Source: an uncultured Muribaculaceae bacterium (GTDB taxonomy: Bacteria; Bacillota_I; Bacilli_A; RF39; UBA660). Taken from it: a DNA stretch of 64,000 nucleotides. Positions 5,550 through 43,420 of this stretch are shown here, one piece after another (positions within the stretch are counted from its first letter, which is position 1; each line of letters opens with the position of its first letter). The translations under genes and the position numbers were made by a program. The notes below the pieces were generated by a model, which did not search any database, was not told the DNA's origin, and saw nothing but the letters and a program-made list of their open reading frames with translations. Where the stretch lies: positions 8,242 through 72,241 of the forward strand of contig CAYJFJ010000002.1 in assembly GCA_964369845.1 (NCBI GenBank), given 5' to 3'.

Positions 5550-6252
5550 TTTGTTTCCTTTCTATATTTTCTTTTAATTCTTTGACAACATTATCAAATT
5601 TGCAATTTAATTTATCTAATACTGAATATATTATATCTTTAATTTCTACTTCAAATTCATTAAAATTCACATCATATATAAATGCAAACATTCTGCAGTA
5701 TGAATCATTAATGTTTTTTACATTTTCACTTGATACTGTTTTTCCATTTTGAATTTCTCTTTCTACGTTTGGAGAAATTTTGTCAGTAGTGATATTTTTA
5801 AAACAATCACTACTGTAAGTTCTTATGATATCAAGTTTATCAGCATCTCTTATAAATTTAGCAAAAAATAAATGCCTTTCATTAAGTGATGGTTCTATAT
5901 TCTTTTTATTATGATTTTTAATTGCAAACTTTATTAGTTCATAATCATTTTCATTCTTCCAAAAATTTTTTATATACATTTTTTCTCCGAATAATACTTC
6001 TACCGAGTAATCTGCATGGTCTATCGATAAGTGATCTTCGTAAGTATTGTAAACTTCTAATTGTTTAAACCTTCCAAAGTCATGTAATAAACCAATTAAT
6101 TCACATAACTCTATATCTTCATCGCTTAAATTCATTAACTTAGCATATTTTCGGCATATTTCAAATACTCTTAATGAATGATTATATTTATCAAAAATAT
6201 CTTTGTTATCCAAATCATAATTATTAACATATTTTTTAAATTCTTCTATCAT
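5530..6252 (-). CDS. HD-domain phosphohydrolase
   Basis: Contains H..LLHDFGRF and a later DADKLD motif (HD superfamily). Its stop overlaps the valS start by 20 nt, so the two are co-transcribed. Confidence 0.7.
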
Positions 6253-6271
6253 AACGCTTCCTTTCTTTCAT

Positions 6272-6462
6272 AAAAAAAGATGATACCTAAAGGGCGAATA
6301 AATCCGCGGTACCACCTTACTTGTTTCTTAAATGATTATAACGTATCTTAAACGATTTAAACTCTATTTGCAACACTTCAAATATTCATATTATTAGTTC
6401 TCATCAACCACTAACTTTCTTGAAATACAATATATTTTACTCCTCAAATTTCTTTGCCTAAC
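6272..6462 (-). promoter_or_regulatory. T-box riboswitch leader (probably Val-specific) with terminator/antiterminator
   Basis: Minus-sense RNA contains the invariant T-box core GGUGGUACCGCG (6316-6305). AAGGUGGUACC (6318-6308) can alternatively pair with GGUAUCAUCUU (6287-6277), which is followed by U7 (6278-6272). Candidate specifier GUU followed by A occurs in AAGAAAGUUAG (codon at 6415-6413). Confidence 0.8.
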
Positions 6463-6468
6463 AAATAT

Positions 6469-6497
6469 ATTTTATCAAATAACTATTTAAATTTCAA
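6469..6497 (-). promoter_or_regulatory. Sigma-A type promoter for the T-box/HD/valS operon
   Basis: Minus-sense TTGAAA (6497-6492), 17-nt spacer, TAAAAT (6474-6469). Confidence 0.6.
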
Positions 6498-6525
6498 GAC
6501 TTAAAACAACTTGACCAATAGCTTT

Positions 6526-8487
6526 TTATCTAATCATATTTAAACTATATGCTAATGATTTTTGATTATCAAAATCAAAGTTAGTTTTTTTGTTAAGATT
6601 ATTGATTTCTTGTAGGATATTTCTTACGAATTCTTCATCATATAATTCGCCAATTTGTTTATCATATATATATGCTTCCACATATTTCATGTAATCTTTG
6701 CTAATGAAAATATATTCAGATTGATTATTGTAATAACTTATAAAATCTTTTTGCAAATTATTTTTAGCAATTAAATTTGTAGTATATAAATCCAAACTTA
6801 ATTTAAACTTAGCGGCATCAAGGTTATTGTTACTACAATATAGAATTATAGTTTCATCTAAAGATTTTTCTTCACTAGCCAACAAATCTAGTAAAGTATT
6901 ATAATTTAAATTTAATGCATATTCTTTATTTGAGTTATAATCCATAAAGTCCTTAAATTCAATTTCATTACTTTTTATAAACTCTAATTTATCGGCAAAT
7001 GCGTTGTCATTTTTAATTAAATCGTATGAACTATAATTATTTTTTAAAGTTAACAGATTTAATGAAACATAATTTTCACCATTGTATGTAAAAGTCTCTG
7101 GTTCTAAATTTCCTTCATTTAAGTAAGTGTTATTTTTTAAATTTCTTAAAGTATCCTGTGAAGATGTAATTATAATATTATTATCTTCATAAAATTTAGG
7201 AATATTTCCATAATAAACTCTTACATCTTCTATAACTTCATTTTTAAAATTTACAAAGTATGTACTCTGTTCATTAGCGGTAATTCCTTCTATTCCATTT
7301 TCAATTGTGTACTCTCCAAAAAAATCGGTATTATCCTCATAATATCCAAAAGAAGAGTTAACATCATTTTGCTGTGATATTTGTTCTTGTAAAGTTTTTG
7401 ATGCTTCATCAAAAGGAATGTCTTCACTTGAAAATGTTGCATTATTTGAGCAAACAGTTAAATTTTTACCAACTTGAACAGTACTTGTAATGCTATCTGC
7501 ACTTTCAATAACTAAGTTGTAGTTATTTAATAAACTACCATTTAAGCCAACTTTATAATTAGTTGAATCAGCATAAAAACCTAAACTTTTTAAAGCAGAT
7601 TCAGGAATATATATGTCGTTATCAATTAAAATTGGATAAACTTTTTTTCCAGTCTCTGTTACTCCATAAACCTCTTTATCATTATCATAAAGTTTAATGT
7701 TTTCATTAATGCTAACATTTATATTTTTTGTATTATGAAGAATTTCATTATCTAATATATTCTGTTCATAATTTTCTATTTCCTCAAATTTGTCATATAT
7801 TTGTTCTGTACTTAAAAATTCATTTGAACTATCAAATTCAAAAAAGTTTAACGTACTATCTACGTCTTTACCATAAAGAGATTTTACAAAGCTTATTTTA
7901 GTTAAAAAAGCGTTTAAATCATTACTACTAACTGTTGAGTTAATAATACTTTCGATTACTTCATAACTATCCAGGTCACTTATTGATTTTTCAGAATCAT
8001 AACTATAAAAATCCTCAGTAACAAAAGTGTATTTATAAATTTTTTCTTCTAATTTAGCTACGGCATTTGCTATTTCAATATTGTAATCATAAAGATATTG
8101 TGATTTTATCAAAAATGGATAAGTTGAGTCTTTAATGAACTTAACTACTTCACTGTGTTCAAAAACTTTTTTTTCTAAATCGTTTAATTCTTTACTACTT
8201 TGTGTAAATATTCTTTCTAAGTCCTTTAAATTATTTAAATAATATAGTAGTATTTTTTGTTCATTTAAACTTAAAGTATTATAAGTTTCTGATGCTAATA
8301 CTGCTAATTTTAAACCATTTGTTGATTCTTTGTTTATATTTTCTGTGTTTTTATTTTGTTCTATTGTTTTTACGATTTGAGATGTTTCGGCATCATCACT
8401 ATTGATTTTCATACTATTCATTGTTGTTGATGCTATCACTCCAGACAGCAAATAAGACATTAATTTTTTATTCAATTTTTTATTCAT
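6526..8487 (-). CDS. Secreted Asn/Glu-rich protein of unknown function
   Basis: 653-aa ORF with an N-terminal signal-like segment (LMSYLLSGVIASTTM). Two segments (KVYPILIDNDIYIPESALKSLGF; YNGENYVSLNLLTL) faintly resemble copper-amine-oxidase N-terminal 'stalk' domains. RBS GGAGG lies upstream. Confidence 0.5.
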   Translation of the reverse strand: MNKKLNKKLMSYLLSGVIASTTMNSMKINSDDAETSQIVKTIEQNKNTENINKESTNGLKLAVLASETYNTLSLNEQKILLYYLNNLKDLERIFTQSSKELNDLEKKVFEHSEVVKFIKDSTYPFLIKSQYLYDYNIEIANAVAKLEEKIYKYTFVTEDFYSYDSEKSISDLDSYEVIESIINSTVSSNDLNAFLTKISFVKSLYGKDVDSTLNFFEFDSSNEFLSTEQIYDKFEEIENYEQNILDNEILHNTKNINVSINENIKLYDNDKEVYGVTETGKKVYPILIDNDIYIPESALKSLGFYADSTNYKVGLNGSLLNNYNLVIESADSITSTVQVGKNLTVCSNNATFSSEDIPFDEASKTLQEQISQQNDVNSSFGYYEDNTDFFGEYTIENGIEGITANEQSTYFVNFKNEVIEDVRVYYGNIPKFYEDNNIIITSSQDTLRNLKNNTYLNEGNLEPETFTYNGENYVSLNLLTLKNNYSSYDLIKNDNAFADKLEFIKSNEIEFKDFMDYNSNKEYALNLNYNTLLDLLASEEKSLDETIILYCSNNNLDAAKFKLSLDLYTTNLIAKNNLQKDFISYYNNQSEYIFISKDYMKYVEAYIYDKQIGELYDEEFVRNILQEINNLNKKTNFDFDNQKSLAYSLNMIR

Positions 8488-13863: not shown

Positions 13864-14251
13864 ATTTATTTGGTTTCATCATGTGTTTGTAAACATTTTT
13901 TAAATTCACTTTTTTAGAGTCATTCATTTTAATAAAATTAATTTGAAGTGGATATCCACTATCAAGTGACATTAATACTTCTACTTTATTAAAACCATAA
14001 CCTATTGCACTTGTTGATATAGATTTATATGGAATAATATGTATTTTTTTAAGTGTAGATAATGGATTTTTATCAAATAAAATCATTCTGTTATCAGTAA
14101 ATACTGCATAATCCATACTATTTTTATAAGCCATCAATACTTCTTCAGATTCATCAACATAATCTACTACATACTTAGGTAAATCTTCTACCGGTATCTC
14201 CCTTTCAAAATTAAAATATTTTGTTAACTCTTTATATTTAATATATGCCAT
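13862..14251 (-). CDS. Bacterial PH-domain (YokE-like) protein
   Basis: MAYIKYKELTKYF...EEVLMAYKNSMDYAVFTDNRMILFDK...IPYKSI pattern. Start moved to the ATG at 14251 (RBS AGGAGA 8 nt upstream); the track start at 14308 adds a hydrophobic junk extension. Confidence 0.55.
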   Translation of the reverse strand: MAYIKYKELTKYFNFEREIPVEDLPKYVVDYVDESEEVLMAYKNSMDYAVFTDNRMILFDKNPLSTLKKIHIIPYKSISTSAIGYGFNKVEVLMSLDSGYPLQINFIKMNDSKKVNLKNVYKHMMKPNK

Positions 14252-14323
14252 AAATAATTCTCCTAAAAAAATTATAACAAAAAAAATACAAACATTCAAG
14301 GTTTGCATTTTTATATTGTTTTT

Positions 14324-33739: not shown

Positions 33740-34174
33740 TTATTTACTTTTTTTATCTGTTTCATTAATATTTTTAACTTCACTAACTTTTTCTATGAAT
33801 TTTTTGTGAGTATCATAATAAGTCATATTAAGAGGTAATTCATCAAATAGCTCTACTTTGTCCATTTCATGAACCAGTTTTTTTGTCCCAAGTTCTAAAA
33901 CATCTACATAGCAGATCAATCCATAAGTTGATATTTTATAATAACAAATTTTTTCGATGTTAGCTTTTGTTATACCCGTTTCTTCTAAAAGTTCTCTTTT
34001 AGCAGCTGCTAAATAATCTTCACCTTCTTCAATATGTCCTCCCGGAATTTCCCAAGTTCCTTTTTCACCATGTCTGCATAAAACCCATTTGTTTTTATAT
34101 CTACATACTAAAATAACTCTTGTAAGGTCACAATCAAGTTTGTGGCTTAGTTCATATAAATTTACTGGCAACAT
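33740..34174 (-). CDS. Nudix hydrolase
   Basis: Nudix box GGHIEEGEDYLAAAKRELLEETG. Confidence 0.8.
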   Translation of the reverse strand: MLPVNLYELSHKLDCDLTRVILVCRYKNKWVLCRHGEKGTWEIPGGHIEEGEDYLAAAKRELLEETGITKANIEKICYYKISTYGLICYVDVLELGTKKLVHEMDKVELFDELPLNMTYYDTHKKFIEKVSEVKNINETDKKSK

Positions 34175-35181
34175 TTTAACTCCTTTACATATAAGTTTCT
34201 TTTTCCCCTTTTAAATTCAACTTGCTTTATGAATTTGTATTCATTTTTAAGAAAATTCTTAATACTGTATTCATTTTCAGGGTACACTGTAGTAAGTAAA
34301 TATTTTTTACCTAAACTATTGCAGTACTTTTCCAATTTCAGTAACATTTTATTTTGATATCCACTTCCTATATATTTCGGACTAACCATTATAGGACCAC
34401 AACCAGCAACTAAAGTATAATCATAATTTAACTTGAATTTATCAACTGTTTTTTGGCTAGACTCCATATACATTACTGAGCAAACTAATTCATTTTCATT
34501 GAAGTAATTAAATAACTTACCTCCACTTTTTAAGACTTCTTCTAACTTTTCAACATCAAAGTCCCCTAGCCACTGCGAATTTTTCATATTTTGTTTTATA
34601 TTATTATAATAATCAATATAGTCTTCATTAGTTATTTCTTTTAATTCAAATTTTTCAAAAGCATCATTTTCTTTTAAAGCTTTTGTTATATTTTCTTTTA
34701 TGAAATCATTTTTTGATTTTGTATACATAACTCTATCATTTGAATATTTTTCTGCTAATTTTTCTTTCAACGTTTGATATTCTTCTAATGCATTTTTATT
34801 AGATTTTAAATAATCTCTAAACAAAATACTTTCTTGATATCTACTACCATTTAACTCCATTAAATGGATCAATACTGATGTGTAATTTTCATTACCTTTT
34901 ACAATTAATATTTCATCCATCTCTAAACTATTTCTAACTTCATATTCTTTTTTATCAAACAATTTTTTATAGTATTCAAAATCTTTAAATTTACTTACTC
35001 CAATAGCAATATCTATAATAGGTTTTGCTTTTAAACCTTTCACTGATGTAGAACCAATGTGTTCTACTATGATATTATTACCTTTGAAAATTTTTAATAA
35101 TTTTTCTTTTTCATCTTCATATTCTTTAACAAATTTTTCATAATTATTTTCTAATTTTACTGTACCTTTAATTAATCCCAT
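34162..35181 (-). CDS. GrpB (nucleotidyltransferase-fold) - GNAT acetyltransferase fusion
   Basis: N-terminal VEHIGSTSVKGLKAKPIIDIAIGV (GrpB/UPF0157). The C-terminal half has the GNAT core VSPKYIGSGYQNKMLLKLEKY. Confidence 0.65.
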   Translation of the reverse strand: MGLIKGTVKLENNYEKFVKEYEDEKEKLLKIFKGNNIIVEHIGSTSVKGLKAKPIIDIAIGVSKFKDFEYYKKLFDKKEYEVRNSLEMDEILIVKGNENYTSVLIHLMELNGSRYQESILFRDYLKSNKNALEEYQTLKEKLAEKYSNDRVMYTKSKNDFIKENITKALKENDAFEKFELKEITNEDYIDYYNNIKQNMKNSQWLGDFDVEKLEEVLKSGGKLFNYFNENELVCSVMYMESSQKTVDKFKLNYDYTLVAGCGPIMVSPKYIGSGYQNKMLLKLEKYCNSLGKKYLLTTVYPENEYSIKNFLKNEYKFIKQVEFKRGKRNLYVKELKCCQ

Positions 35182-35217: not shown

Positions 35218-36336
35218 TTAACAATCTTTTTTTCTTTCTCGAAAAAATTCACTATCTTCTACCAGTCTACATGATGCTAGCAAATCTGCAATGCTCATTA
35301 TTTGCATATCATCTCCTAAACATTCATCTTCTTCATATCTATTTGGTTTTTCTGAATTCTTATGAACATAAATACCACCCATTATCTCGCCAGTAAATTC
35401 TTTAACAGTCTCAGCAAAACTTCCTGATGCTTGAAAATATTTTGAAGATGACGATTTTATTTTTTCATCTTTTGAAAGACTGCCTTTCATATACTCTTTA
35501 TTTTGAGGTAATTTATATAAATCTTTATGCATTAAATTAGAATTATCTAAATCTATTATTGAATTATATAAATACATACCACTAGAGCATATACTATTAA
35601 ATTCTATAACATCTACTATTTGTACACCATTTTTTTCGTAAACCATTAAATCCACAACATAAGAACTAGGAAAGTCAGTTTCTTCAAGTCTTTTTACTAC
35701 TTCCTCTAGTTTACCTTTTATTCTTTCATCAATCTTATGAACAATATCATCTGTTATTCTAGATATGTTTCTAGCTTGATTATCTATAACTACACATCTA
35801 TACTCTAACTTTCCTAATTCATCTTCCATAATATTTACTTTTTCAGACAAAATAAATTCCTCACTTGAATGTCTTTCTAAAGCTTTAACTAATATCGACT
35901 TTTTATTTTTAAAATAATCTACTTTGCAGAATGCATTGTAATTTTTCTCTTTTGTTTTAATGAAAAACTCTTCGCCGAATAACTCTTTTATTTTTGCATT
36001 TCCTTCTTCACTAAGAATATCTGACCCTACAAACTCTTTTGTATTTCTTAATGTTTTAAACCACTTAGTCCATGAGTGGATTTTTTCATCATCTTCAGTA
36101 GTAACAAAACTTCTTATTCCTAATTTATTTGCTACTTCTCTTATTTTTTTTACTTGCATCATTCCACTTATAGGGCAAATTACTTTACCAGTTAAATCCA
36201 TAGGATTACCTGATAAATCACAAAATATTTCTTTGTCACTATTAAATACACAAATTTTATTATTATCAATAGCTTTAATATATTCTTCATTAAAAACTCT
36301 TTTTTTTAACAAATCATCGTATAAACATATAAACAT
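35218..36336 (-). CDS. ATP-grasp-like enzyme (R2K clade / DUF4343-like), function unknown
   Basis: EEFFIKTKEKNY..F, LEYRCVVIDNQ and VVDLMVYEKNGVQIVDVIEFNSICSSGMY resemble the ATP-grasp core strands. The assignment is by eye only. Confidence 0.45.
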   Translation of the reverse strand: MFICLYDDLLKKRVFNEEYIKAIDNNKICVFNSDKEIFCDLSGNPMDLTGKVICPISGMMQVKKIREVANKLGIRSFVTTEDDEKIHSWTKWFKTLRNTKEFVGSDILSEEGNAKIKELFGEEFFIKTKEKNYNAFCKVDYFKNKKSILVKALERHSSEEFILSEKVNIMEDELGKLEYRCVVIDNQARNISRITDDIVHKIDERIKGKLEEVVKRLEETDFPSSYVVDLMVYEKNGVQIVDVIEFNSICSSGMYLYNSIIDLDNSNLMHKDLYKLPQNKEYMKGSLSKDEKIKSSSSKYFQASGSFAETVKEFTGEIMGGIYVHKNSEKPNRYEEDECLGDDMQIMSIADLLASCRLVEDSEFFRERKKDC

Positions 36337-36369
36337 ATATAACTCTCTTTCTTATAACGCATTTCAAAT

Positions 36370-36939
36370 TTATCTATTTAAAATACTAACAGCTTTTTTA
36401 GCATCCTCTTCTTTGAGAAGCGAATCTTCATCAAATGCACTTGTCATAATGTGATTATTTTCATTATAAAAGTCTGATGTATCATCTATAACTATATAAT
36501 TACACTCGGCTAAATTATCTTTGTGATAATACTTTAAATATTCATCTATTTTATATTGTCTTGAACCATAATATTTTAATTTAATAGATTTTAAATCATT
36601 TATATATAATCCATTTAAATTGATTATATCTTTATTAAGTTCATGCAAATTGAAATATTTATCAATGAAATCAACTTTTGCAAAATCATAATTTAAACCT
36701 AGCTTTTCACACGACTTTATAAGTTTTGTTTCAAACTCTATTCTTCTTTTTACAAAATTCTCATCACAATAATAATCTTCACGAATCCAATTAGCACTTT
36801 GTGATGAAATTATAACTAATTTTGCATTTGTTTTAACTATTATATATGCTAAGTGATCCATTGCTTGTTCATTTATGAACTCTTTAGTATAAACATTATT
36901 AAAAACTCCATCTATATCTAAAAATATATACTTTTTCAT
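36370..36939 (-). CDS. HAD-superfamily protein of the 'Swiss-army-knife RNA repair' HAD type
   Basis: KKYIFLDIDGVFNN...KLVIISSQ...NYIVIDD pattern. Overlaps the GDPD stop (ATGA). Confidence 0.55.
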   Translation of the reverse strand: MKKYIFLDIDGVFNNVYTKEFINEQAMDHLAYIIVKTNAKLVIISSQSANWIREDYYCDENFVKRRIEFETKLIKSCEKLGLNYDFAKVDFIDKYFNLHELNKDIINLNGLYINDLKSIKLKYYGSRQYKIDEYLKYYHKDNLAECNYIVIDDTSDFYNENNHIMTSAFDEDSLLKEEDAKKAVSILNR

Positions 36940-37868
36940 TTCTCAAATTCCTTTTTTTTAACAAATATTTTCTTTAACTTTTGTGGATTATCTGTAGTAA
37001 TACTTATTTGTTCTATATTGGAATTTAATATTTCAATATCTATTTTTTTATACAGCATTTCTATATCTTTAACTTCATTGATCACATAAATTCCTAACTG
37101 TGAAAAATTATCAAGAGCATATTTAATAGTTTTATTTGTTAAAGCATTGCTTAAAGAAATTGTTAAATAATTCCATAGTAGTTTTAAATAGATTCTTATA
37201 TTTTCAACACTTTCCCAGTCAACATCGTAAGATGTTTTAATCCTAATGGACACACTATCTATATGTTTATATAGTTTACTTAAGTATAGTGCAAATTTAT
37301 AATCACAAAGTAAATCTGTTTTAATCTTTGTTAAACCTTTTTTTATCTGATACTTTCTTAAAATATCTAAATTATTTGGTATGAATGATAAATGAATAAT
37401 GTTATTACTTAGTTCAGGAAAATCACTTAATATGTTAGCTAAACTTGAAATATTTTTATTTTGAAATAAAAGTATGTCTTTTGTTTCTACTTTAATTACT
37501 TTACTACCTAATTTATCTGCGTTTTCCTTAAAATATTTCAAAACTTCTTCAAGCGTTACTATTTTAAAAGTATGATCACAAATACCATTACTGCTTTTTC
37601 TTGAACAGAAGTCATATCCTTTTAAATTTTCAAGGCTACTTTTTTTTACTTTGCCAACTCCATTTGAAACGTCATCAATAAATTCATCATGTATAATCAC
37701 TGGAATGTTGTCTTTTGTAAATACTATATCAAACTCAAATCCATCACATGAATCTAATAACTTTTCATTCTCAAAAATGTATTTCAAACTCTCAAAGGAA
37801 TTTTCTGGGTAATTTGTTTCTAAAAATCCTAAACGATGAGCAATTAATTTTACTTCTTTATTTATCAT
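36936..37868 (-). CDS. Glycerophosphodiester phosphodiesterase family protein (intact copy)
   Basis: IAHRLGF..YPENSFESL...FEFDIVFTKDNIPVIIHDE (GDPD catalytic His/Glu/Asp pattern). RBS GGAGG, and an extended -10 TGATATAAT upstream. Confidence 0.75.
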   Translation of the reverse strand: MINKEVKLIAHRLGFLETNYPENSFESLKYIFENEKLLDSCDGFEFDIVFTKDNIPVIIHDEFIDDVSNGVGKVKKSSLENLKGYDFCSRKSSNGICDHTFKIVTLEEVLKYFKENADKLGSKVIKVETKDILLFQNKNISSLANILSDFPELSNNIIHLSFIPNNLDILRKYQIKKGLTKIKTDLLCDYKFALYLSKLYKHIDSVSIRIKTSYDVDWESVENIRIYLKLLWNYLTISLSNALTNKTIKYALDNFSQLGIYVINEVKDIEMLYKKIDIEILNSNIEQISITTDNPQKLKKIFVKKKEFEK

Positions 37869-38030
37869 AGATTGCCTCCAATAAACTAATTATATCATGG
37901 AAAACTTATTTTCAAATATTTCCTATTTACATTTTAGTATAACGTTCACCTTTATTTAATATTAAAATTATTGCATTTTTTATAATTCTAAGTTATTATT
38001 GACTAATAAATGTGTAATTTAATATCTATA

Positions 38031-38407
38031 TCAATTCTTACTTATATTTAAAACTATTCCTATACTTGCAAGCGATATTAATAAACTTGAGCCACCATAA
38101 CTAAGAAAAGGTAATGTTACCCCTGTTACAGGTATTAAACCTACTACCACGCCTAAATTAAGAAGTGCCTGAACTAATATCCCTATTCCTATTCCAAATG
38201 ATAAATATTTTGGAAATAAATCTGTTTGCCTTAGAGAAATTTTTATAATTCTATAAAATATAAATAAGAAGAAAGTTGTTACAATTATAACTCCTAAAAA
38301 ACCAAATTCTTCACTTATAATTGAAAATATAAAATCTGTTTGGGGTTCTGGCAAGTAAAAGTGTTTTTGTCTTGAGGATATAAATCCTTGTCCTAAAAGA
38401 CCACCTG
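38031..38407 (-). pseudogene. 5'-truncated copy (copy A) of the ftsW/rodA-family gene 3' end
   Basis: The 377 nt align without indels to 39927..40303 (offset 1896). The frame is closed upstream by TAG at 38438-38436. The only start available is the TTG used by the ORF track (38354). It encodes just the last ~125 residues of the 359-aa protein. Confidence 0.8.
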
Positions 38408-38431
38408 AGTTATTTATAAAGTGATAAATTT

Positions 38432-38460
38432 TGAACTATTCGGAAATTCCGAATAGTTCA
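38432..38460. repeat. Perfect 29-nt palindrome (14-bp arms) at the cassette / ftsW-fragment junction
   Basis: TGAACTATTCGGAA-A-TTCCGAATAGTTCA. It lies 3 nt after the fic stop and 24 nt from the homology breakpoint at 38407. No U-tract follows in the minus (transcribed) sense. Confidence 0.85.
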
Positions 38461-38463
38461 CTT

Positions 38464-39204
38464 TTAATTAGTTTCTAATATACTAATATATTTTTCAAGT
38501 TCTAAGATTAAATAATCTGCTATCAAATTAGTCATGGCACTTAAATCTTCAGCGTCATCATAAACTTTAAATGCATCATAGTAATCTTTTTTATTTGTAT
38601 TTTTAATATTAATTGGAAGTAATCCATTTTTCATCAACTCAAAATTCATAATTAATCTACCACATCTACCATTTCCATCAATAAATGGATGTATTCTTTC
38701 AAATTTGATATGAAATAAGGCTATTTTTTCAACAATGTGCATAGATGTATCTTCATTATACCAATTGAGTAAATTATCAAGTCCTGGTTTAATCATAAAT
38801 GGCTGGGCTAATTCTACATTACTACCTACAATCTGTACAGGTATTTTTCTAAACTTTCCTCTATCGTCAGGTCTACTCATTAAAACCAAATTGTGAATAT
38901 TAAGAATTTCACTTTCACTTAAATTTTTTTTATTTTTTACTAAATCAAGTATATAGTAAAATGCATCTTTATGCCCTATTGCATCAAAATGATCATTAAC
39001 AGGTTTACCACTAATTGTAATTTTTTCTTTTATTACTAAAGCAGTTTCATCTAAAGTTAAAGTATTTCCCTCTATTGCGTTACTATCATAAGTATATTCA
39101 AGCATAAAGTTTTCATTTAATTTTTCTACTTCTCCTTGAGATAATGGTCTAAGACTACTTATCTTTTCCTTTAATTCATTTATTCTCAATAATTTACCAT
39201 CCAT
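38464..39204 (-). CDS. fic: Fic-family adenylyltransferase (AMPylator), class II-type with N-terminal inhibitory motif
   Basis: Fic core HPFIDGNGRCGRL (HxFx[D/E]GNGRxxR). Inhibitory-helix motif S41-NAIE-G46 (S/TxxxE[G/N]) lies upstream of the core. Confidence 0.88.
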   Translation of the reverse strand: MDGKLLRINELKEKISSLRPLSQGEVEKLNENFMLEYTYDSNAIEGNTLTLDETALVIKEKITISGKPVNDHFDAIGHKDAFYYILDLVKNKKNLSESEILNIHNLVLMSRPDDRGKFRKIPVQIVGSNVELAQPFMIKPGLDNLLNWYNEDTSMHIVEKIALFHIKFERIHPFIDGNGRCGRLIMNFELMKNGLLPINIKNTNKKDYYDAFKVYDDAEDLSAMTNLIADYLILELEKYISILETN

Positions 39205-39266
39205 CTTAATTCCTCTTTCTTACTTCTATTTTAACATATTAATATAAATATTCATCAAATTATTTA
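39205..39266 (-). repeat. Leader repeat copy 1 (upstream of fic): extended -10 + RBS
   Basis: Minus-sense AAATAATTTGATGAATATTTATATTAATATGTTAAAATAGAAGTAAGAAAGAGG. About 85% identical to 39690..39750 over ~55 nt by hand alignment. Contains TGTTAAAAT and AAGAGG. Confidence 0.7.
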
Positions 39267-39689
39267 TATATTTTTATTCAATTCAATTAAAATTTTGTTT
39301 TGCACTTCCTTATTAAACTCTTTATCAGTTTCATCAAATATCCATGAAAAACCATCATTTACATATCTTGGAAATATATGCAAATGATAATGACCTATAT
39401 CGTTAAATTTTCCACCATTTTGCATAATTGAATATCCGTCTAATTTATATATATTTTTCAATGTTTTAACTATTTTTTTTGTTAGGACATTAATTTCATT
39501 TAATATAGCAATATCAATTTCATCAACATCTAAAAAATGCTTTTTTGTTATTATAAGAACATGACCTTCATTAATAGGATCAGAATCTAAAAATGCAAAA
39601 ATTTTATCAGACTCATATATTTTTAAACATTCCTCATTATGATTTACCAACTCACAAAAAACACATGTTTCATTTCTTTTACTATCCAT
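39264..39689 (-). CDS. HIT-family (Hint-like) nucleotide hydrolase/phosphoramidase
   Basis: Histidine triad GHYHLHIFPR, N-terminal CVFC, and DPINEGHVLIITKKH. Confidence 0.88.
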   Translation of the reverse strand: MDSKRNETCVFCELVNHNEECLKIYESDKIFAFLDSDPINEGHVLIITKKHFLDVDEIDIAILNEINVLTKKIVKTLKNIYKLDGYSIMQNGGKFNDIGHYHLHIFPRYVNDGFSWIFDETDKEFNKEVQNKILIELNKNI

Positions 39690-39750
39690 ATTAACCTCTT
39701 TCTTACTATTATTTTAACATACTAATATGAATAATTATCGAATTATTTGA
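39690..39750 (-). repeat. Leader repeat copy 2 (upstream of the HIT gene)
   Basis: Minus-sense CAAATAATTCGATAATTATTCATATTAGTATGTTAAAATAATAGTAAGAAAGAGG. Its distal part forms the 3' end of the truncated GDPD fragment. Confidence 0.7.
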
Positions 39751-39899
39751 TTTTCTTTATCAAATTCAAATCCTTCACAAGAATCAAGAGCTTCTTTATT
39801 ATTAAAAATACAATTAAAACTTTCTAGTGATTTTTCAAGATATTTAGTTTCTAAAAATCCTAATCTATATGCTATTAATCTAATTTTATCGTTTATCAC
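39735..39899 (-). pseudogene. Truncated 5' fragment of a diverged glycerophosphodiester phosphodiesterase gene
   Basis: A GTG at 39899 behind RBS GAGGTG gives VINDKIRLIAYRLGFLETKYLEKSLESFNCIFNNKEALDSCEGFEFD-KENQIIR*. It is ~60% identical to residues 1-47 of the intact GDPD (36936..37868) and breaks after GFEFD. Confidence 0.75.
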
Positions 39900-39926
39900 T
39901 ATATTCACCTCAACAAGCTAATTATA

Positions 39927-40303
39927 TCACTTTTTACTTATATTTAAAACTATTCCAATGCTTGCAAGTGATATGAGTAAACTAGATCCGCCGTATGATA
40001 AGAAAGGAAGTGTAACTCCTGTTACAGGTATTAAACCCACTACCACGCCTAAATTAAGAAGTGCCTGAACTAATATCCCTATTCCTATTCCAAATGATAA
40101 ATATTTTGGAAATAAATCTGTTTGCCTTAGAGAAATTTTTATAATTCTATAAAATATAAATAAGAAGAAAGTTGTTACAATTATAACTCCTAAAAAACCA
40201 AATTCTTCACTTATAATTGAAAATATAAAATCTGTTTGGGGTTCTGGCAAGTAAAAGTGTTTTTGTCTTGAGGACATAAATCCTTGTCCTAAAAGACCAC
40301 CTG
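39927..40303 (-). repeat. Direct repeat copy B (3' end of the intact ftsW/rodA-family gene)
   Basis: Same 377 nt as 38031..38407. There are 22 mismatches in the 112 nt nearest the stop codon and 1 mismatch in the other 265 nt (hand alignment). Confidence 0.85.
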
Positions 40304-41006
40304 GCCCTATTGCGTATAAACTTTGTATTATTTGAAAACCACTACCTAAAGGGTCACTCCATGGATTTAAAAATGATACTATTCTTGCCACTCTATATGG
40401 AGCTACTATGACAAGTCCTACAACTCCTAATAGACCTGCTACTCCAAGTTTTATAAAAAAACTAAGTTTTACTCCTGATATGAATATGATTGCTATATTA
40501 GTCAAAACAAGAACTACTCCTGTTCCAAAATCTGGTTCCAACATTATAAGTGCAAATGAAAACATAATTACTCCTAAAAGAGGAATTATGTTTTTAATTT
40601 CATTATGTTCATTTATCTTATTTTTTGATAAATATTTAGCGGTAAAAATCATTAGTCCTAACTTAGAAAATTCCGACGGCTGCACACCAAAAGAACCTAT
40701 TCCAAACCAAGATCTAGATCCATTTCTTACAATACCTATTCCTGGAATTAGTACTAAAATTAAAAAAATTATACATCCAAAAAGTATTAAGTTACTTCTT
40801 TTTTCATATAATTTATAATTTATCTTTGATAAAACTAACGTACCTAGTATTCCCACTACTAAAAATACACTTTGATTCATTACAAATTTATATGGATTGC
40901 TAAATTTATACTCAGCCCATACATAACTTGATGAATATATCATAATGCATCCGAATACAGATAATAAAATAACACTTATTAAAAGTGGATAATCAACTTT
41001 TTTCAT
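39927..41006 (-). CDS. ftsW: FtsW/RodA/SpoVE-family (SEDS) peptidoglycan glycosyltransferase
   Basis: 359 aa, ~10 TM segments, with SEDS motifs GSRSWF.., QPSEFSKL, PEPQTDFIFS and LPFLSYGGSS. Confidence 0.88.
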   Translation of the reverse strand: MKKVDYPLLISVILLSVFGCIMIYSSSYVWAEYKFSNPYKFVMNQSVFLVVGILGTLVLSKINYKLYEKRSNLILFGCIIFLILVLIPGIGIVRNGSRSWFGIGSFGVQPSEFSKLGLMIFTAKYLSKNKINEHNEIKNIIPLLGVIMFSFALIMLEPDFGTGVVLVLTNIAIIFISGVKLSFFIKLGVAGLLGVVGLVIVAPYRVARIVSFLNPWSDPLGSGFQIIQSLYAIGPGGLLGQGFMSSRQKHFYLPEPQTDFIFSIISEEFGFLGVIIVTTFFLFIFYRIIKISLRQTDLFPKYLSFGIGIGILVQALLNLGVVVGLIPVTGVTLPFLSYGGSSLLISLASIGIVLNISKK

Positions 41007-41045: not shown

Positions 41046-41073
41046 AATTAAAAAACAGAATTATTTTCTGTTT
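41046..41073 (-). terminator. Terminator after the 41061..42671 gene
   Basis: Minus-sense AAACAGAA-AATAA-TTCTGTTT hairpin followed by UUUAAUUU. Confidence 0.55.
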
Positions 41074-42671
41074 AATTTTTTATACTCTTCTTCTTTAGCT
41101 ATCCATTTTCTATAGTTTGCTCTATTGATTTCTAGATTTTCTTCAATTTCTTGATTTACACTTATTATCAATGATTTATCTATAACTGATGCGAAATTAT
41201 ATTCTTTTAAGACACTTTGTAATAGTTCAAATTTTTGTTCTTCAATTAATCCGTAATTGTAAATTAAGTTTACTTGATTTAATGCGTTTCTGATAATATT
41301 AATTTGATTAATAGGCATTCTTTTATCTTTAGTGTAACCTTGATGTGATTCATTCATTAAATCAATAACTTTTGTGTAACCATAACTTTTTAAATATTTT
41401 ATAAAATACACATTCATTTCTAACATTTCAATACCACTATTTAAAACTTCTTCTTTTGTCAAATATGTAGCATCTAGTAAACTTAAGTTTTTTTCTGATA
41501 CAAAATTTACTACTGTATCAGCTGGCTTAATACCTAAATTTTTTGTATTATATAAATAATATTTTGTAAGTTTTAATATATCACTTAATTTTGTAACTCC
41601 TTCTTCTTTTAGTATATTAACCGTTTTATAATGAAAATTCATTTGTTCTAAACTAACATCTTCATAAACATCTAGACCTTGTTCATCTAATTTTTTATAA
41701 CTTAATCCATATTTGTTTAGTTTGTCTTTAGCTTCAGAGAATGCTTCTTGATTGTTAACTATATATTCTACTATTTTTTCATCGGTATTTACAAGATCAC
41801 ACGTATTTATAATTCCTTCTTTATTAAGTATAGAAACTATTTCAGAATCAAAGTAAAAACTTATACATCTACTAAGCAAATCGTTTCTATCTGCATTTTT
41901 TGAATCGCTTATAAATTTTAATTCTACCTTTTCTAAAAAGTTTTTAACAATTATTAAATCTTCATTATTTAGTGAAGTAAATGTTGTTAAAAAATCTTCT
42001 TCATAAATATTTAGAATGTTTCTTACATATATCATCTTTTTAGATTTAAAAGCATCAAGTATTTTTTCAGAAAAATCAAAATCGCTTAGTAATTTATCTA
42101 AAAATATATATTTTTTAGTTCCATAATAATCTTTATTTTCTCTGCTTTTTATACGTTCTTTTTTTACTGGCATCACTTCTTTTTTTTCTACTGAAATTTC
42201 TAGTACCTTAAGTTCTTCTTCCAAATTTGGAAATTCATTAACTAATGCTTTAATTACTTTTGCTTTTAATATTTCACTTAAATATTTTATATCTGTTCTT
42301 GCTTTACTTATAGAATTTTGTGATTTTACCTGATTTATTAATGACTTTATACTTTTGAGTTCTTTATTTTCTAGTTTTTTTCTCACTGCTGGACTTAAAT
42401 TCAATAAATATATTGAGCATTCTATTTTTTCTTCAAAAGTTAATGTTTTAAATACTTCATCATATAACTTTAAATTGTATTTATTTAATATGTCAGATAT
42501 TTTTTCTACTACTTTATTTGTTATGTATGGTAGTGATAGTAATTCACTTTTGCTTTTTTTTATTAAATCAGAAAGTAAATAAATACGATTTGTATTTAAA
42601 ATTCCTCTAATATTTTGATTTATTTCTTCTAAAATTTCTTCGTCAGTTTTTAATATTAATTTTCTTTCCAT
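41061..42671 (-). CDS. Protein made of ~6 tandem RNA polymerase alpha-subunit CTD-like (helix-hairpin-helix) domains
   Basis: Repeating ~60-aa units, e.g. FHYKTVNILKEEGVTKLSDILKLTKYYLYNTKNLGIKPADTVVNFVSEKNLSL and FDSEIVSILNKEGIINTCDLVNTDEKIVEYI...AKDKLNKYGLSY. These follow the alpha-CTD pattern L(S)xRxxNxLKRxGIxTVxDLxxxxxxELxxIxNxGxKSxxEIxxxLxxxGLxL. Confidence 0.55.
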   Translation of the reverse strand: MERKLILKTDEEILEEINQNIRGILNTNRIYLLSDLIKKSKSELLSLPYITNKVVEKISDILNKYNLKLYDEVFKTLTFEEKIECSIYLLNLSPAVRKKLENKELKSIKSLINQVKSQNSISKARTDIKYLSEILKAKVIKALVNEFPNLEEELKVLEISVEKKEVMPVKKERIKSRENKDYYGTKKYIFLDKLLSDFDFSEKILDAFKSKKMIYVRNILNIYEEDFLTTFTSLNNEDLIIVKNFLEKVELKFISDSKNADRNDLLSRCISFYFDSEIVSILNKEGIINTCDLVNTDEKIVEYIVNNQEAFSEAKDKLNKYGLSYKKLDEQGLDVYEDVSLEQMNFHYKTVNILKEEGVTKLSDILKLTKYYLYNTKNLGIKPADTVVNFVSEKNLSLLDATYLTKEEVLNSGIEMLEMNVYFIKYLKSYGYTKVIDLMNESHQGYTKDKRMPINQINIIRNALNQVNLIYNYGLIEEQKFELLQSVLKEYNFASVIDKSLIISVNQEIEENLEINRANYRKWIAKEEEYKKLNRK

Positions 42672-42691: not shown

Positions 42692-43420
42692 TTACTTTGT
42701 TTTTGCTTCTTTATTTTCTAAATTTTCATAAGCAACATAGTTATTTATATATAAAGCTTCACATAACAGTTGATATTTTTTAATTTCAAATAACATTTTT
42801 ATTTCTGCTACTTTACTTTGAAGCTCTTCTTCTCTAGTTTTCCCTACTGCTCTTAATCTTTTGATTTTTTCTTCTTTAAATTCTAGTAAATCATCTACTG
42901 TGAAAACATCAGTTCTAGACAATGCATTTTCTACAGCCGGTGATAATCCTATATTTTGAATTTCTGTAGCTAATGTTATTTCTTGTGATGAATCTACGTA
43001 AAGAGCTAGTGATACTTCTTCTAATGCTTGTTTTAATTTTTTCATACTTGAACTTGGTATAATACCTTTTTTTACTAATAAATTTTCACTTATTGAAACT
43101 AAACTACCTATTTTATTTATTTTTTTATTTTCTAAATTAGCTACTATATCATGACTTATATTTAACTTAGATACTTCTGATTCGTATAATTCTTCTTTTG
43201 ATAATTCTTTTAAATCCACAAGTCTCAAACCAAATCCAGCTAAAAATTCTTTGATTGCTATTATTTTAGTAGCACCTATACTTCTAATTCTTGCAAGCTC
43301 ACTTTCTGATTTATTTGATAACTGACCTATAGTTGATATTCTTCTTCTCATTAAACATAAAACAATACCTCTATCTAAATTTGTTTCTGTTAATATTACT
43401 TCCATTATATTATTATTCAT
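42692..43420 (-). CDS. Protein made of 3 tandem RNA polymerase alpha-CTD-like domains
   Basis: First unit NLDRGIVLCLMRRRISTIGQLSNKSESELARIRSIGATKIIAIKEFLAGFGLRL is a close match to the alpha-CTD consensus. Two further units: ISHDIVANLENKKINKIGSL... and LSPAVENALSRTDVFTVDDLLEFKEEKIKRLRAVGKTREEEL. Confidence 0.6.
   Translation of the reverse strand: MNNNIMEVILTETNLDRGIVLCLMRRRISTIGQLSNKSESELARIRSIGATKIIAIKEFLAGFGLRLVDLKELSKEELYESEVSKLNISHDIVANLENKKINKIGSLVSISENLLVKKGIIPSSSMKKLKQALEEVSLALYVDSSQEITLATEIQNIGLSPAVENALSRTDVFTVDDLLEFKEEKIKRLRAVGKTREEELQSKVAEIKMLFEIKKYQLLCEALYINNYVAYENLENKEAKTK

Follow-up and report, generated by a model that had tools for sequence, protein, structure and literature searches.

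A duplicated ftsW 3' end brackets an apparently mosaic accessory-gene islet at a candidate insertion hotspot of uncultured low-GC gut Bacilli

Introduction

To our knowledge, the RF39-like uncultured Bacilli are common gut residents with small genomes in which almost no mobile elements have been described. In this work, we analyzed a locus from one such genome, contained in a stretch of 64,000 nucleotides (nt; hereafter the window) from contig CAYJFJ010000002.1 of assembly GCA_964369845.1 (positions 8,242 to 72,241, forward strand), deposited as an uncultured Muribaculaceae bacterium and placed by GTDB in RF39 (UBA660). At this locus, the SEDS-family gene ftsW is followed by a 1,896-bp unit in which an HIT-family gene and a Fic gene are bracketed by a direct repeat of the ftsW 3' end. 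An earlier inspection of the same DNA, made without database searches (the sequence-only reading), had ascribed the unit to a single entry of foreign DNA; our comparison with related genomes points to a layered origin at a site that is used recurrently.

Organization of the ftsW locus

Coordinates are window positions, and all genes of the region lie on the minus strand; the G+C content of the window is 26%. Loci of relatives (ftsW or related contig loci) are designated by L-numbers and homologous proteins by P-numbers. The features of the unit and its immediate surroundings are the following:

39927..41006, minus strand: intact ftsW, SEDS family, 359 amino acids (aa), from the listing of open reading frames (ORFs); Pfam FTSW_RODA_SPOVE, E = 2e-111
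Last 91-112 nt of intact ftsW: tail B, of putatively foreign type
39922..40303, minus strand: repeat copy B, 3' end of the functional ftsW (gap-free alignment, offset 1896 bp)
38026..38407, minus strand: repeat copy A, displaced 5'-truncated ftsW fragment with tail A; its left junction, 38407/38408, is illegitimate
38143..38378, partner 40039-40274: identical 236-nt repeat core (from the mismatch list)
40018..40028, minus strand: CCTGTAACAGG (P-V-T-G codons) in copy B, proposed attachment-site core
38122..38132, minus strand: 11-mer of copy A, same as CCTGTAACAGG
39921..39948, minus strand: promoter-like TTTAAA-16-(TG)ATATAAT, which overlaps the stop codon of ftsW and is directed towards the next gene
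39735..39908, minus strand: GDPD' fragment of 57 codons, the first 50 homologous to GDPD, then truncated
39695..39769, minus strand: 75-nt leader 5' of HIT (promoter and ribosome-binding region), 81% identical to the Fic leader
39264..39689, minus strand: HIT-family gene, 141 aa, motif HYHLHIF; Pfam HIT, E = 1e-19
39212..39286, minus strand: 75-nt leader 5' of Fic, left boundary of the module shared with L162 and L163
38464..39204, minus strand: Fic gene, 246 aa, with active-site and inhibitory motifs; Pfam Fic, E = 7e-23
38432..38460, no strand: perfect 29-nt palindrome, terminator-like
37879..37926, minus strand: possible decayed third ftsW tail end with TGATATAAT promoter, directly 5' of the resident GDPD
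36936..37868, minus strand: resident intact GDPD gene, 310 aa, 73% nt identical to the GDPD of L161

The HIT and Fic genes are both intact, and each has its own leader. Within the window, the pair of 75-nt leaders and the 29-nt palindrome are found only at the ftsW locus, thus they are not genome-wide repeats. The Fic protein displays the active-site motif HPFIDGNGRCGR and an internal inhibitory motif, SNAIEG, at residue 41. A class I Fic module with a separate antitoxin was considered, and no partner-borne (S/T)xxxE(G/N) motif was found, SNAIEG lying within Fic itself; since Fic carries its own inhibitory motif, it is not part of a two-gene toxin-antitoxin pair. Furthermore, HIT is absent beside Fic in L162 and L163, and is thus not a constant Fic partner.

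At the end of ftsW, the stop codon is overlapped by an extended -10 promoter (TG-A-TATAAT), and the TGATATAAT motif recurs before the resident GDPD (37879-37900, within 37879-37926) and in L007; with such a promoter motif at its end, the ftsW tail would be able to drive the gene that follows. Local alignment of 37879-37926 with the ftsW tail end gave a score of 39, versus 28 +/- 3.9 for shuffled sequences, 10 of 500 of which reached 39. That this stretch is a decayed ftsW tail end, which would make the resident GDPD an older cassette, is suggestive only.

Two divergent tails on a shared repeat

Realignment of 38031-38407 with 39927-40303 reproduced the repeat without indels at an offset of exactly 1896 bp, and the identity runs 5 nt beyond the stop codon, to 38026/39922. 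Our recount agreed as well, with 22 mismatches, 21 of them synonymous, in the 112 nt by the stop codon (38031-38142), and a single one, at 38379, in the remaining 265 nt (23 in all). The sequence-only reading described the repeat accurately in all checkable particulars, including the in-frame TAG at 38438-38436 that closes the copy A fragment, the assignment of copy B to the 3' end of the intact SEDS gene, and the presence between the repeats of an intact HIT, an intact Fic, the 29-nt palindrome and a GDPD 5' fragment of 57 aa, whose identity to the intact GDPD, put at about 60%, measures 61.7% at the amino-acid level.

By codon, tails A and B show 16 synonymous differences (21 nt), including a TCA/AGT serine switch and three leucine-family switches, the sole non-synonymous change being the terminal K/N. 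Dense divergence sets in directly behind ACAGG; one more difference, at 40038, lies 21 nt farther upstream. The upstream 265 nt are of the same type in both copies (2 differences), and only the tails differ. The 38379 mismatch is non-synonymous (M/I) and is carried by copy A alone; as L162 has the copy-B base, it is private to the displaced fragment. A reciprocal donor/recipient mosaic split at one crossover, as expected of Campbell integration, was not seen in the two copies.

Distinct affinities of the parts of the unit

The closest homologue of the resident GDPD is P0002 (66% aa identity), located at the very start of contig L161 (CAYJNH010000037.1). Positions 1-202 of L161 are 95% nt identical to window 39956-39755, the first 64 nt being identical, and this stretch comprises the last 27 nt of tail B, an 18-nt spacer and the GDPD' fragment. 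In L161, the counterpart of GDPD' is a full-length gene, and tail, spacer and GDPD follow one another uninterrupted. Orthologous genes of the window and the L161 genome are 73% (GDPD), 80% (GrpB) and 79% (Nudix) nt identical; against this background of 73-80%, the 95% identity indicates that tail B and GDPD' come from a lineage much nearer to L161. Accordingly, GDPD' displays 83% aa identity to P0002 versus 61.7% to the resident GDPD. Of the 47 residues that can be aligned with L161, 8 are changed by only 10 nt differences, a pattern that fits a fragment in decay. Thus, a foreign origin of the in-gene tail B and of GDPD' is supported by these comparisons, and to this extent the earlier claim that foreign DNA entered ftsW stands; its other part, entry as one donor string, is not supported.

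L161 carries neither HIT nor Fic, and an ftsW fragment of about 105 nt lies directly 3' of its own GDPD. It has two GDPD paralogues 5 kb apart (58-984 and 6086-7009; 66% and 54% aa identity to the window GDPD), the first of which is flanked by ftsW tails and is hence cassette-like. In the window, the truncation point of GDPD' coincides with the start of the HIT leader, within the short microhomology TTGAATT(T)GA.

The Fic part leads elsewhere. The closest Fic is P0075 (98% aa identity), on the 1,675-nt contig L162 (CAYJPM010000063.1), followed by that of L163 (89%). Positions 423-1675 of L162 align without gaps to window 39276-38024 at 98.4% identity, a block that runs from the Fic leader through Fic, the palindrome and the illegitimate junction and takes in the entire 377-nt fragment, tail A included; the fragment part is identical at 383 of 384 nt, and at 38142 (partner 40038) L162 has the copy A base. 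Upstream of the Fic leader, L162 holds the 3' end of an unrelated open reading frame (ORF-X) in place of HIT, and then a second copy of the palindrome, which therefore lies on both sides of Fic there; in L163 it is found upstream of Fic, in a palindrome-leader-Fic arrangement (89%) followed by other genes. The junction at -377 is shared with L162 and thus does not depend on the HIT/GDPD' part. Of the 19 differences that separate the window from L162 ahead of the ftsW fragment (in the Fic leader, Fic or the palindrome), 16 lie within the initial 245 nt of the block, so that window 39031-39276 diverges by 6.5% from L162 423-668 and the remaining ~1,007 nt by 0.4%; this step near 39031 indicates a further recombination boundary inside Fic.

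A contiguous single donor molecule was not found, as neither L161 nor L162 carries the part of the other, and judged by these affinities the 1,896-bp unit is a mosaic. Fic as a general neighbor of ftsW was considered and rejected: a 58%-identical Fic, P0102, lies in a conserved DnaJ/RRF context.

A recurrent junction in related genomes

In total, 160 ftsW loci of relatives were examined; in 130 of them, the tail is intact and followed by at least 500 nt. The nearest FtsW proteins (63-78% identity) belong to metagenome-assembled genomes (MAGs) from animal and human guts labelled as uncultured Bacilli, 'Tenericutes' or Erysipelotrichaceae. Exact-protein look-ups of the window FtsW, HIT and GDPD returned no record. 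Displaced ftsW tails beyond intervening cargo were found in the following loci:

L010: 257 nt, 100% identity; cargo 7.2 kb
L042: 83 nt, 87% identity
L047: 106 nt, 78% identity
L051: 108 nt, 97% identity
L054: 112 nt, 81% identity
L151: 99 nt, 98% identity; cargo 4.1 kb
L152: 106 nt, 96% identity; cargo 8.2 kb
L154: 136 nt, 94% identity

Shorter remnants of displaced tails occur in L017, L019, L134 and others. L063 represents an empty site relative to L051, and L007 (ftsW next to GrpB) and L161 (tail next to GDPD) offer analogues of an empty site. The cargo is unrelated between loci, and includes YibE/F with Fur and DUF1980; CMP-sialic acid and polysaccharide genes; radical SAM with UvrD-like, Nudix and ORF6N genes; Fic with GNAT; an AAA_14/DUF4143 ATPase; and single genes such as ORF6N alone or GDPD alone, the cargo of the window being HIT and Fic. 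The sequence-only reading had held that its claim would fail if close relatives carried the same duplicated tail without Fic/HIT; this applies in part, as relatives with duplicated ftsW tails around quite different cargo exist, and the duplication thus belongs to the site and not to the HIT/Fic cargo. As in the window, the two tails of L054 differ mostly by silent changes (of 31 codons, 11 differ synonymously and 1 non-synonymously). A comparison of polarity, in which the tails of the window, L010, L051, L054, L151, L152 and L154 were set against their nearest relatives, gave no call, these relatives being too distant.

In L007, ftsW is directly followed by GrpB and Nudix homologues, and relative to it the whole of window 35218-39900 is thus extra. 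An apparent duplication in L007 proved to be a scaffold gap (10 N) and was not counted as a duplicated tail, but the left junction of this locus, at the 11-mer described below, was kept.

The commonest gene just 3' of ftsW in relatives (18 loci) encodes a protein of ~295 aa with an ORF6N (KilA-N/anti-repressor-like) domain and a C-terminal half that has no assignment, for instance at L010 9014-9799, L047 4529-5428, L042 11355-12038, L019 7220-7996 and L017 3422-6532 (three in tandem). This gene, absent from the window, is the sole cargo between ftsW and the displaced tail in several loci, and the ~1.1-kb unit of tail plus ORF6N may be a selfish cassette.

Position of the junction and putative attachment site

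In the window, the switch from identity to divergence lies at the 11-mer CCNGTNACNGG, which encodes P-V-T-G, and the loci were aligned on it. The identity of the displaced tail starts inside this 11-mer or at its last GG in L042, L047, L051, L054, L151, L152 and L161. The cargo-side flanks are all different (6 of 7 end in GG, and most show a loose GT..GG pattern), which indicates that these junctions were made independently. Furthermore, ftsW passes into unrelated sequence immediately after the 11-mer (ACNGG) in L007, L052 (contig CANQNZ010000003.1) and L076, and contig L055 ends there. The departing stretches (L007 10976-11100, L052 10976-11011 and L076 9138-9212) have no replacement tail, the frames continuing as PVTGFALRMWEIEKC*, PVTGVALLLHS* and PVTG*, and the left ends of L052 and L076 both contain AAAATTTCTTCTT at about equal distance.

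Among nine long fragments, seven start within 12 nt, for which P ~ 1e-9 by our own arithmetic if starts were uniform over 400 nt; the others are L010 (-269) and L154 (-130), and the boundary of the window and L162 lies at -377. Illegitimate joints should scatter, thus this concentration favors a site-specific process. As V-T-G-V-T is coded GTN-ACN-GGN-GTN-ACN, the site forms a 14-nt dyad, GTnAC-n-GG-n-GTnAC, centered on an asymmetric GG, which we take to be the layout of a serine-recombinase core. A putative attB would be centered on GTAACAGGAGTTAC, and a putative attP may be reconstructed from L161 as ATATACGTAACCGG plus AGTTACACTTCC. The window displays further features of the attachment type, namely an insert bracketed by 377-nt direct repeats at the 3' end of an intact ftsW; divergence over the final 91-112 nt starts at the core, but the repeat itself continues for another 265 nt upstream, to an unrelated junction.

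In L152, the cargo-side flank of the displaced tail (14221-14280) contains a direct repeat of CAAATCGGAGTTACA, in two copies 30 nt apart from start to start, which could be a protein-binding arm site or arise by chance.

Search for a recombinase

A motif scan of ORFs of at least 150 aa found no tyrosine or serine recombinase motif in the window, in agreement with the earlier statement that it contains no integrase or transposase. The same scan across the 160 loci returned one tyrosine-recombinase-like protein, in L090, 8 kb upstream of ftsW, and Pfam searches of the examined cargo returned no recombinase.

The only candidate seen is ORF-X (L162 3-383), of which 126 C-terminal residues ending in ...IEIHFNFNL are present directly upstream of Fic. 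It matches weakly phrog_95 'integrase' (profile positions 455-572 of 651, E = 1e-3), and its best Pfam match is DUF4368 (E = 0.016, below threshold), a domain that one group of large serine recombinases carries at the C terminus. Searches for homologues of ORF-X in the protein database, phages, plasmids, PDB and NCBIfam gave nothing usable, and scans of IMG/VR detected neither ORF-X nor an ftsW tail. Hence, ORF-X is a lead rather than a finding. A recombinase role for the ORF6N protein was unsupported, as it displays only an anti-repressor-like DNA-binding domain. In the literature, we found no description of an attachment site in ftsW.

Proposed origin of the islet and alternative explanations

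Taking these findings together, we favor, with somewhat more confidence than doubt, an explanation in which the 1,896-bp unit is a recombinase-less mosaic islet of accessory genes, located at a recurrent site-specific hotspot inside the ftsW 3' end and later reshaped by homologous recombination. In a clade of uncultured low-GC gut Bacilli, incoming DNA would join ftsW immediately after the GG of CCNGTNACNGG, and many inserts would bring their own ftsW tail of ~95 nt ending in an outward-facing promoter; as such inserts supply a replacement tail, ftsW would remain whole, with the resident tail shifted beyond the cargo. A site-specific enzyme would make the junction in trans, a large serine recombinase being the likeliest kind.

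For the window, three steps may be envisaged. An older insertion-duplication would have placed the Fic-palindrome module and a 377-nt native-type ftsW fragment downstream of ftsW, a state shared with L162; the -377 junction is most simply explained by such an event or by an illegitimate one. Subsequently, a GDPD cassette from an L161-like lineage, with its own tail B, would have entered at the GG of the in-gene copy. Finally, a deletion through microhomology would have truncated GDPD against the HIT leader, removing the intervening DNA and possibly a recombinase gene with it. The last two steps could be a single homology-facilitated illegitimate event, and the order given is the one we infer. 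Recombination by RecA between the identical repeats of 236-265 nt should be able to release the islet as a 1.9-kb circle and so restore an ftsW with tail A.

A wider proposal, which we advance tentatively and hold short of probable, is that ftsW acts as an integron-like capture platform, in which small cassettes of one to a few genes, each with a substitute tail and promoter, are inserted and exchanged in trans at the GG of the P-V-T-G-V-T dyad by an enzyme possibly of the DUF4368 type, ftsW thus serving as a portable attachment site across species.

Several points weigh against the site-specific hotspot. Recombinases were identified with confidence at none of the loci, and both matches of ORF-X fall below curated thresholds. 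The boundaries of the window and L162 (-377), L010 (-269) and L154 (-130) lie away from the 11-mer, which calls for an additional process that is not site-specific. At 40038, 21 nt ahead of the GG, copy B departs from the A type and L162 sides with copy A; if this base is donor-derived, the left crossover was homologous, within the conserved block, and not at the GG. The apparent truncation of ftsW in L007, L052 and L076, where a replacement tail is lacking, would be difficult to explain for an essential gene and could reflect mixtures of strains in the MAGs. In addition, all relatives are short-read MAGs, and the genome-contig and metagenome-contig collections held no strain of the same species (best FtsW match 78% aa), so that the comparisons rest on species-level relatives. 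Homologous recombination clearly also shapes the window locus.

The strongest alternative, still rather unlikely in our judgment, is capture driven by homology without a site-specific enzyme, in which DNA of relatives enters, for example by transformation, with a RecA crossover in conserved ftsW on the left and an illegitimate or microhomology joint on the right; in one variant, the displaced tail is a portable right-hand homology arm, and selection for an intact ftsW and for the tail promoter filters the products. The variable repeat lengths (99-377 nt), the three boundaries away from the dyad, the layered mosaicism of the window locus, which is typical of homologous exchange, the microhomology TTGAATT(T)GA at the GDPD'/HIT-leader junction, the difference at 40038, which may place the crossover upstream of the GG, and the lack of any recombinase found would all fit such capture. 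However, it cannot explain why seven independent right junctions with unrelated flanks fall within one 11-mer, when illegitimate joints should scatter, nor why ftsW is cut at the same base without a replacement tail in three loci.

The origin put forward by the sequence-only reading, a single Campbell-type or homology-facilitated integration of a 1.9-kb [ftsW tail - GDPD' - HIT - Fic] segment, with the 265-nt tract produced by later gene conversion, appears improbable. It accounts for the direct repeats that bracket the insert, for the exact offset without indels, and for the foreign tail in the intact gene with the native tail on the displaced fragment. Nevertheless, the parts differ in their closest relatives and neighbors (L161 versus L162), and the palindrome-fragment junction is shared with L162, which has no HIT or GDPD' upstream of Fic, so that one event bringing the whole string is not supported. 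Moreover, a single Campbell crossover with a donor ~20% diverged would leave the 265-nt tracts diverged, and they are near-identical; the conversion step needed in addition would have to stop exactly at the recurrent junction. The switch point, read earlier as the edge of a conversion tract, is the junction used in at least 10 other genomes, and is better read as a tail-swap.

Finally, we regard as very improbable an assembly artefact or strain chimera, in which the true chromosome reads ftsW-tail A-GDPD and a 1,896-bp cycle from another strain or a free circle was threaded through the 236-nt node: this identical core is longer than usual short-read k-mers, a graph in which cycle and chromosome have one node in common can be resolved only with read pairs, and L007 shows scaffolders stumbling at the ftsW site, but the novel junction 38407/38408 must exist in real molecules, the palindrome-fragment-tail A linkage is reproduced in the independent assembly L162 (383/384 nt) and the tail B-spacer-GDPD junction in L161, the two tails are unique sequence, analogous structures with non-identical, uniquely assembling repeats occur in L054, L047, L042 and L154, and a 1.9-kb circle without a replication gene could only be the excision product of an integrated form. 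The repeat thus appears not to be a pure assembly collapse, although a short-read assembler might take either of two paths through the 236-nt core in the window contig.

Comparison with known systems

The staphylococcal cassette chromosome (SCC) integrates at the 3' end of rlmH (orfX) in staphylococci, a fixed site where the gene is kept intact and serial or tandem units are bounded by direct repeats; SCC elements include pseudo-SCC without ccr and composite arrays, in which many units lack a recombinase and use a large serine recombinase in trans. The ftsW islet resembles SCC and pseudo-SCC in its fixed site at the 3' end of a conserved gene that remains intact, and in the repeats that bracket the unit; serial or tandem units, and units that lack a recombinase and would rely on one provided in trans, are further common traits. 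It differs in the target, in the repeats (100-380 nt of coding sequence versus ~15-18 bp), in the size of the units (mostly 0.7-8 kb), in that no ccr-like gene was identified, and in the host, an uncultured low-GC Bacilli lineage (RF39-like).

Cis-mobilizable elements (CIMEs) are integrase-less remnants flanked by attachment (att) sites, such as those found alongside the integrative and conjugative elements (ICEs) ICESt1 and ICESt3 at the 3' end of fda in Streptococcus thermophilus, and probably derive from decay or accretion of integrative elements. The ftsW islet is likewise a recombinase-less island bounded by attL/attR-like repeats at the 3' end of a housekeeping gene; unlike CIMEs, no parental ICE or integrase is known for it, the att repeat holds a replacement coding tail, and its outer 265 nt are not att-derived. 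In some temperate phages and islands, attP carries the 3' end of the target gene (tRNA, tmRNA), up to ~100 bp in some Streptococcus pyogenes prophages. As in these phages, the DNA that arrives at ftsW provides a replacement for the 3' end, and the native one comes to lie at the far junction; unlike them, the ftsW cargo lacks phage genes and is of an ordinary metabolic or regulatory nature, and no ftsW tail was found in IMG/VR contigs.

Campbell-type insertion-duplication and homology-facilitated illegitimate recombination occur in naturally transformable bacteria. The window shares with their products a homologous segment doubled around foreign DNA, with one homologous and one illegitimate junction, and the -377 junction probably arose by a process of this type; such a process does not, however, predict that different species would use one fixed junction at ftsW again and again. 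Integron cassettes offer another parallel, as small promoter-dependent units of 1-2 genes gather at a single site, where the platform provides the promoter; unlike integrons, no IntI is found and the ftsW cassettes carry their own promoters. An attC-like folding of the ftsW tails was considered and rejected, since their single-stranded DNA folds no better than shuffled sequences (z -0.9 to +0.8).

The insertion of substitute tails at gene 3' ends and the existence of recombinase-less att-flanked remnants are thus established principles; the novelty lies in ftsW as target, in the long coding tails that carry promoters, in the small and diverse recombinase-free cassettes, and in the host lineage. 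If the proposed hotspot is real, an attachment site in an essential gene would explain the exchange of accessory genes between species ~20-25% diverged, the functions seen so far being Fic, HIT, GDPD, surface-polysaccharide genes and metal transport; the displaced ftsW tail would be a simple marker of this variable gene pool in metagenomes, and the site would lead to a recombinase/att pair that might serve as a tool. Annotators would also have reason to treat ftsW "pseudogene fragments", and contigs that break off at this site, as biological.

Neighboring genes

Further downstream of the resident GDPD, four genes follow:

36370-36939, minus strand: HAD_SAK_2 gene
35218-36336, minus strand: R2K ATP-grasp gene
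34162-35181, minus strand: GrpB-like ORF
33740-34174, minus strand: Nudix gene

The HAD_SAK_2 and R2K-clade ATP-grasp genes thus occupy 35218-36939 (minus strand), 3' of the resident GDPD, and Pfam connects the HAD_SAK_2 domain to 'Swiss Army Knife' RNA-repair systems. In L007, the GDPD, HAD_SAK_2 and ATP-grasp genes are absent between ftsW and GrpB. On the other side, just 5' of ftsW, two consecutive ORFs (41061-42671 and 42692-43420, minus strand; 536 and 242 aa) match RNA_pol_A_CTD only, and are not rpoA.

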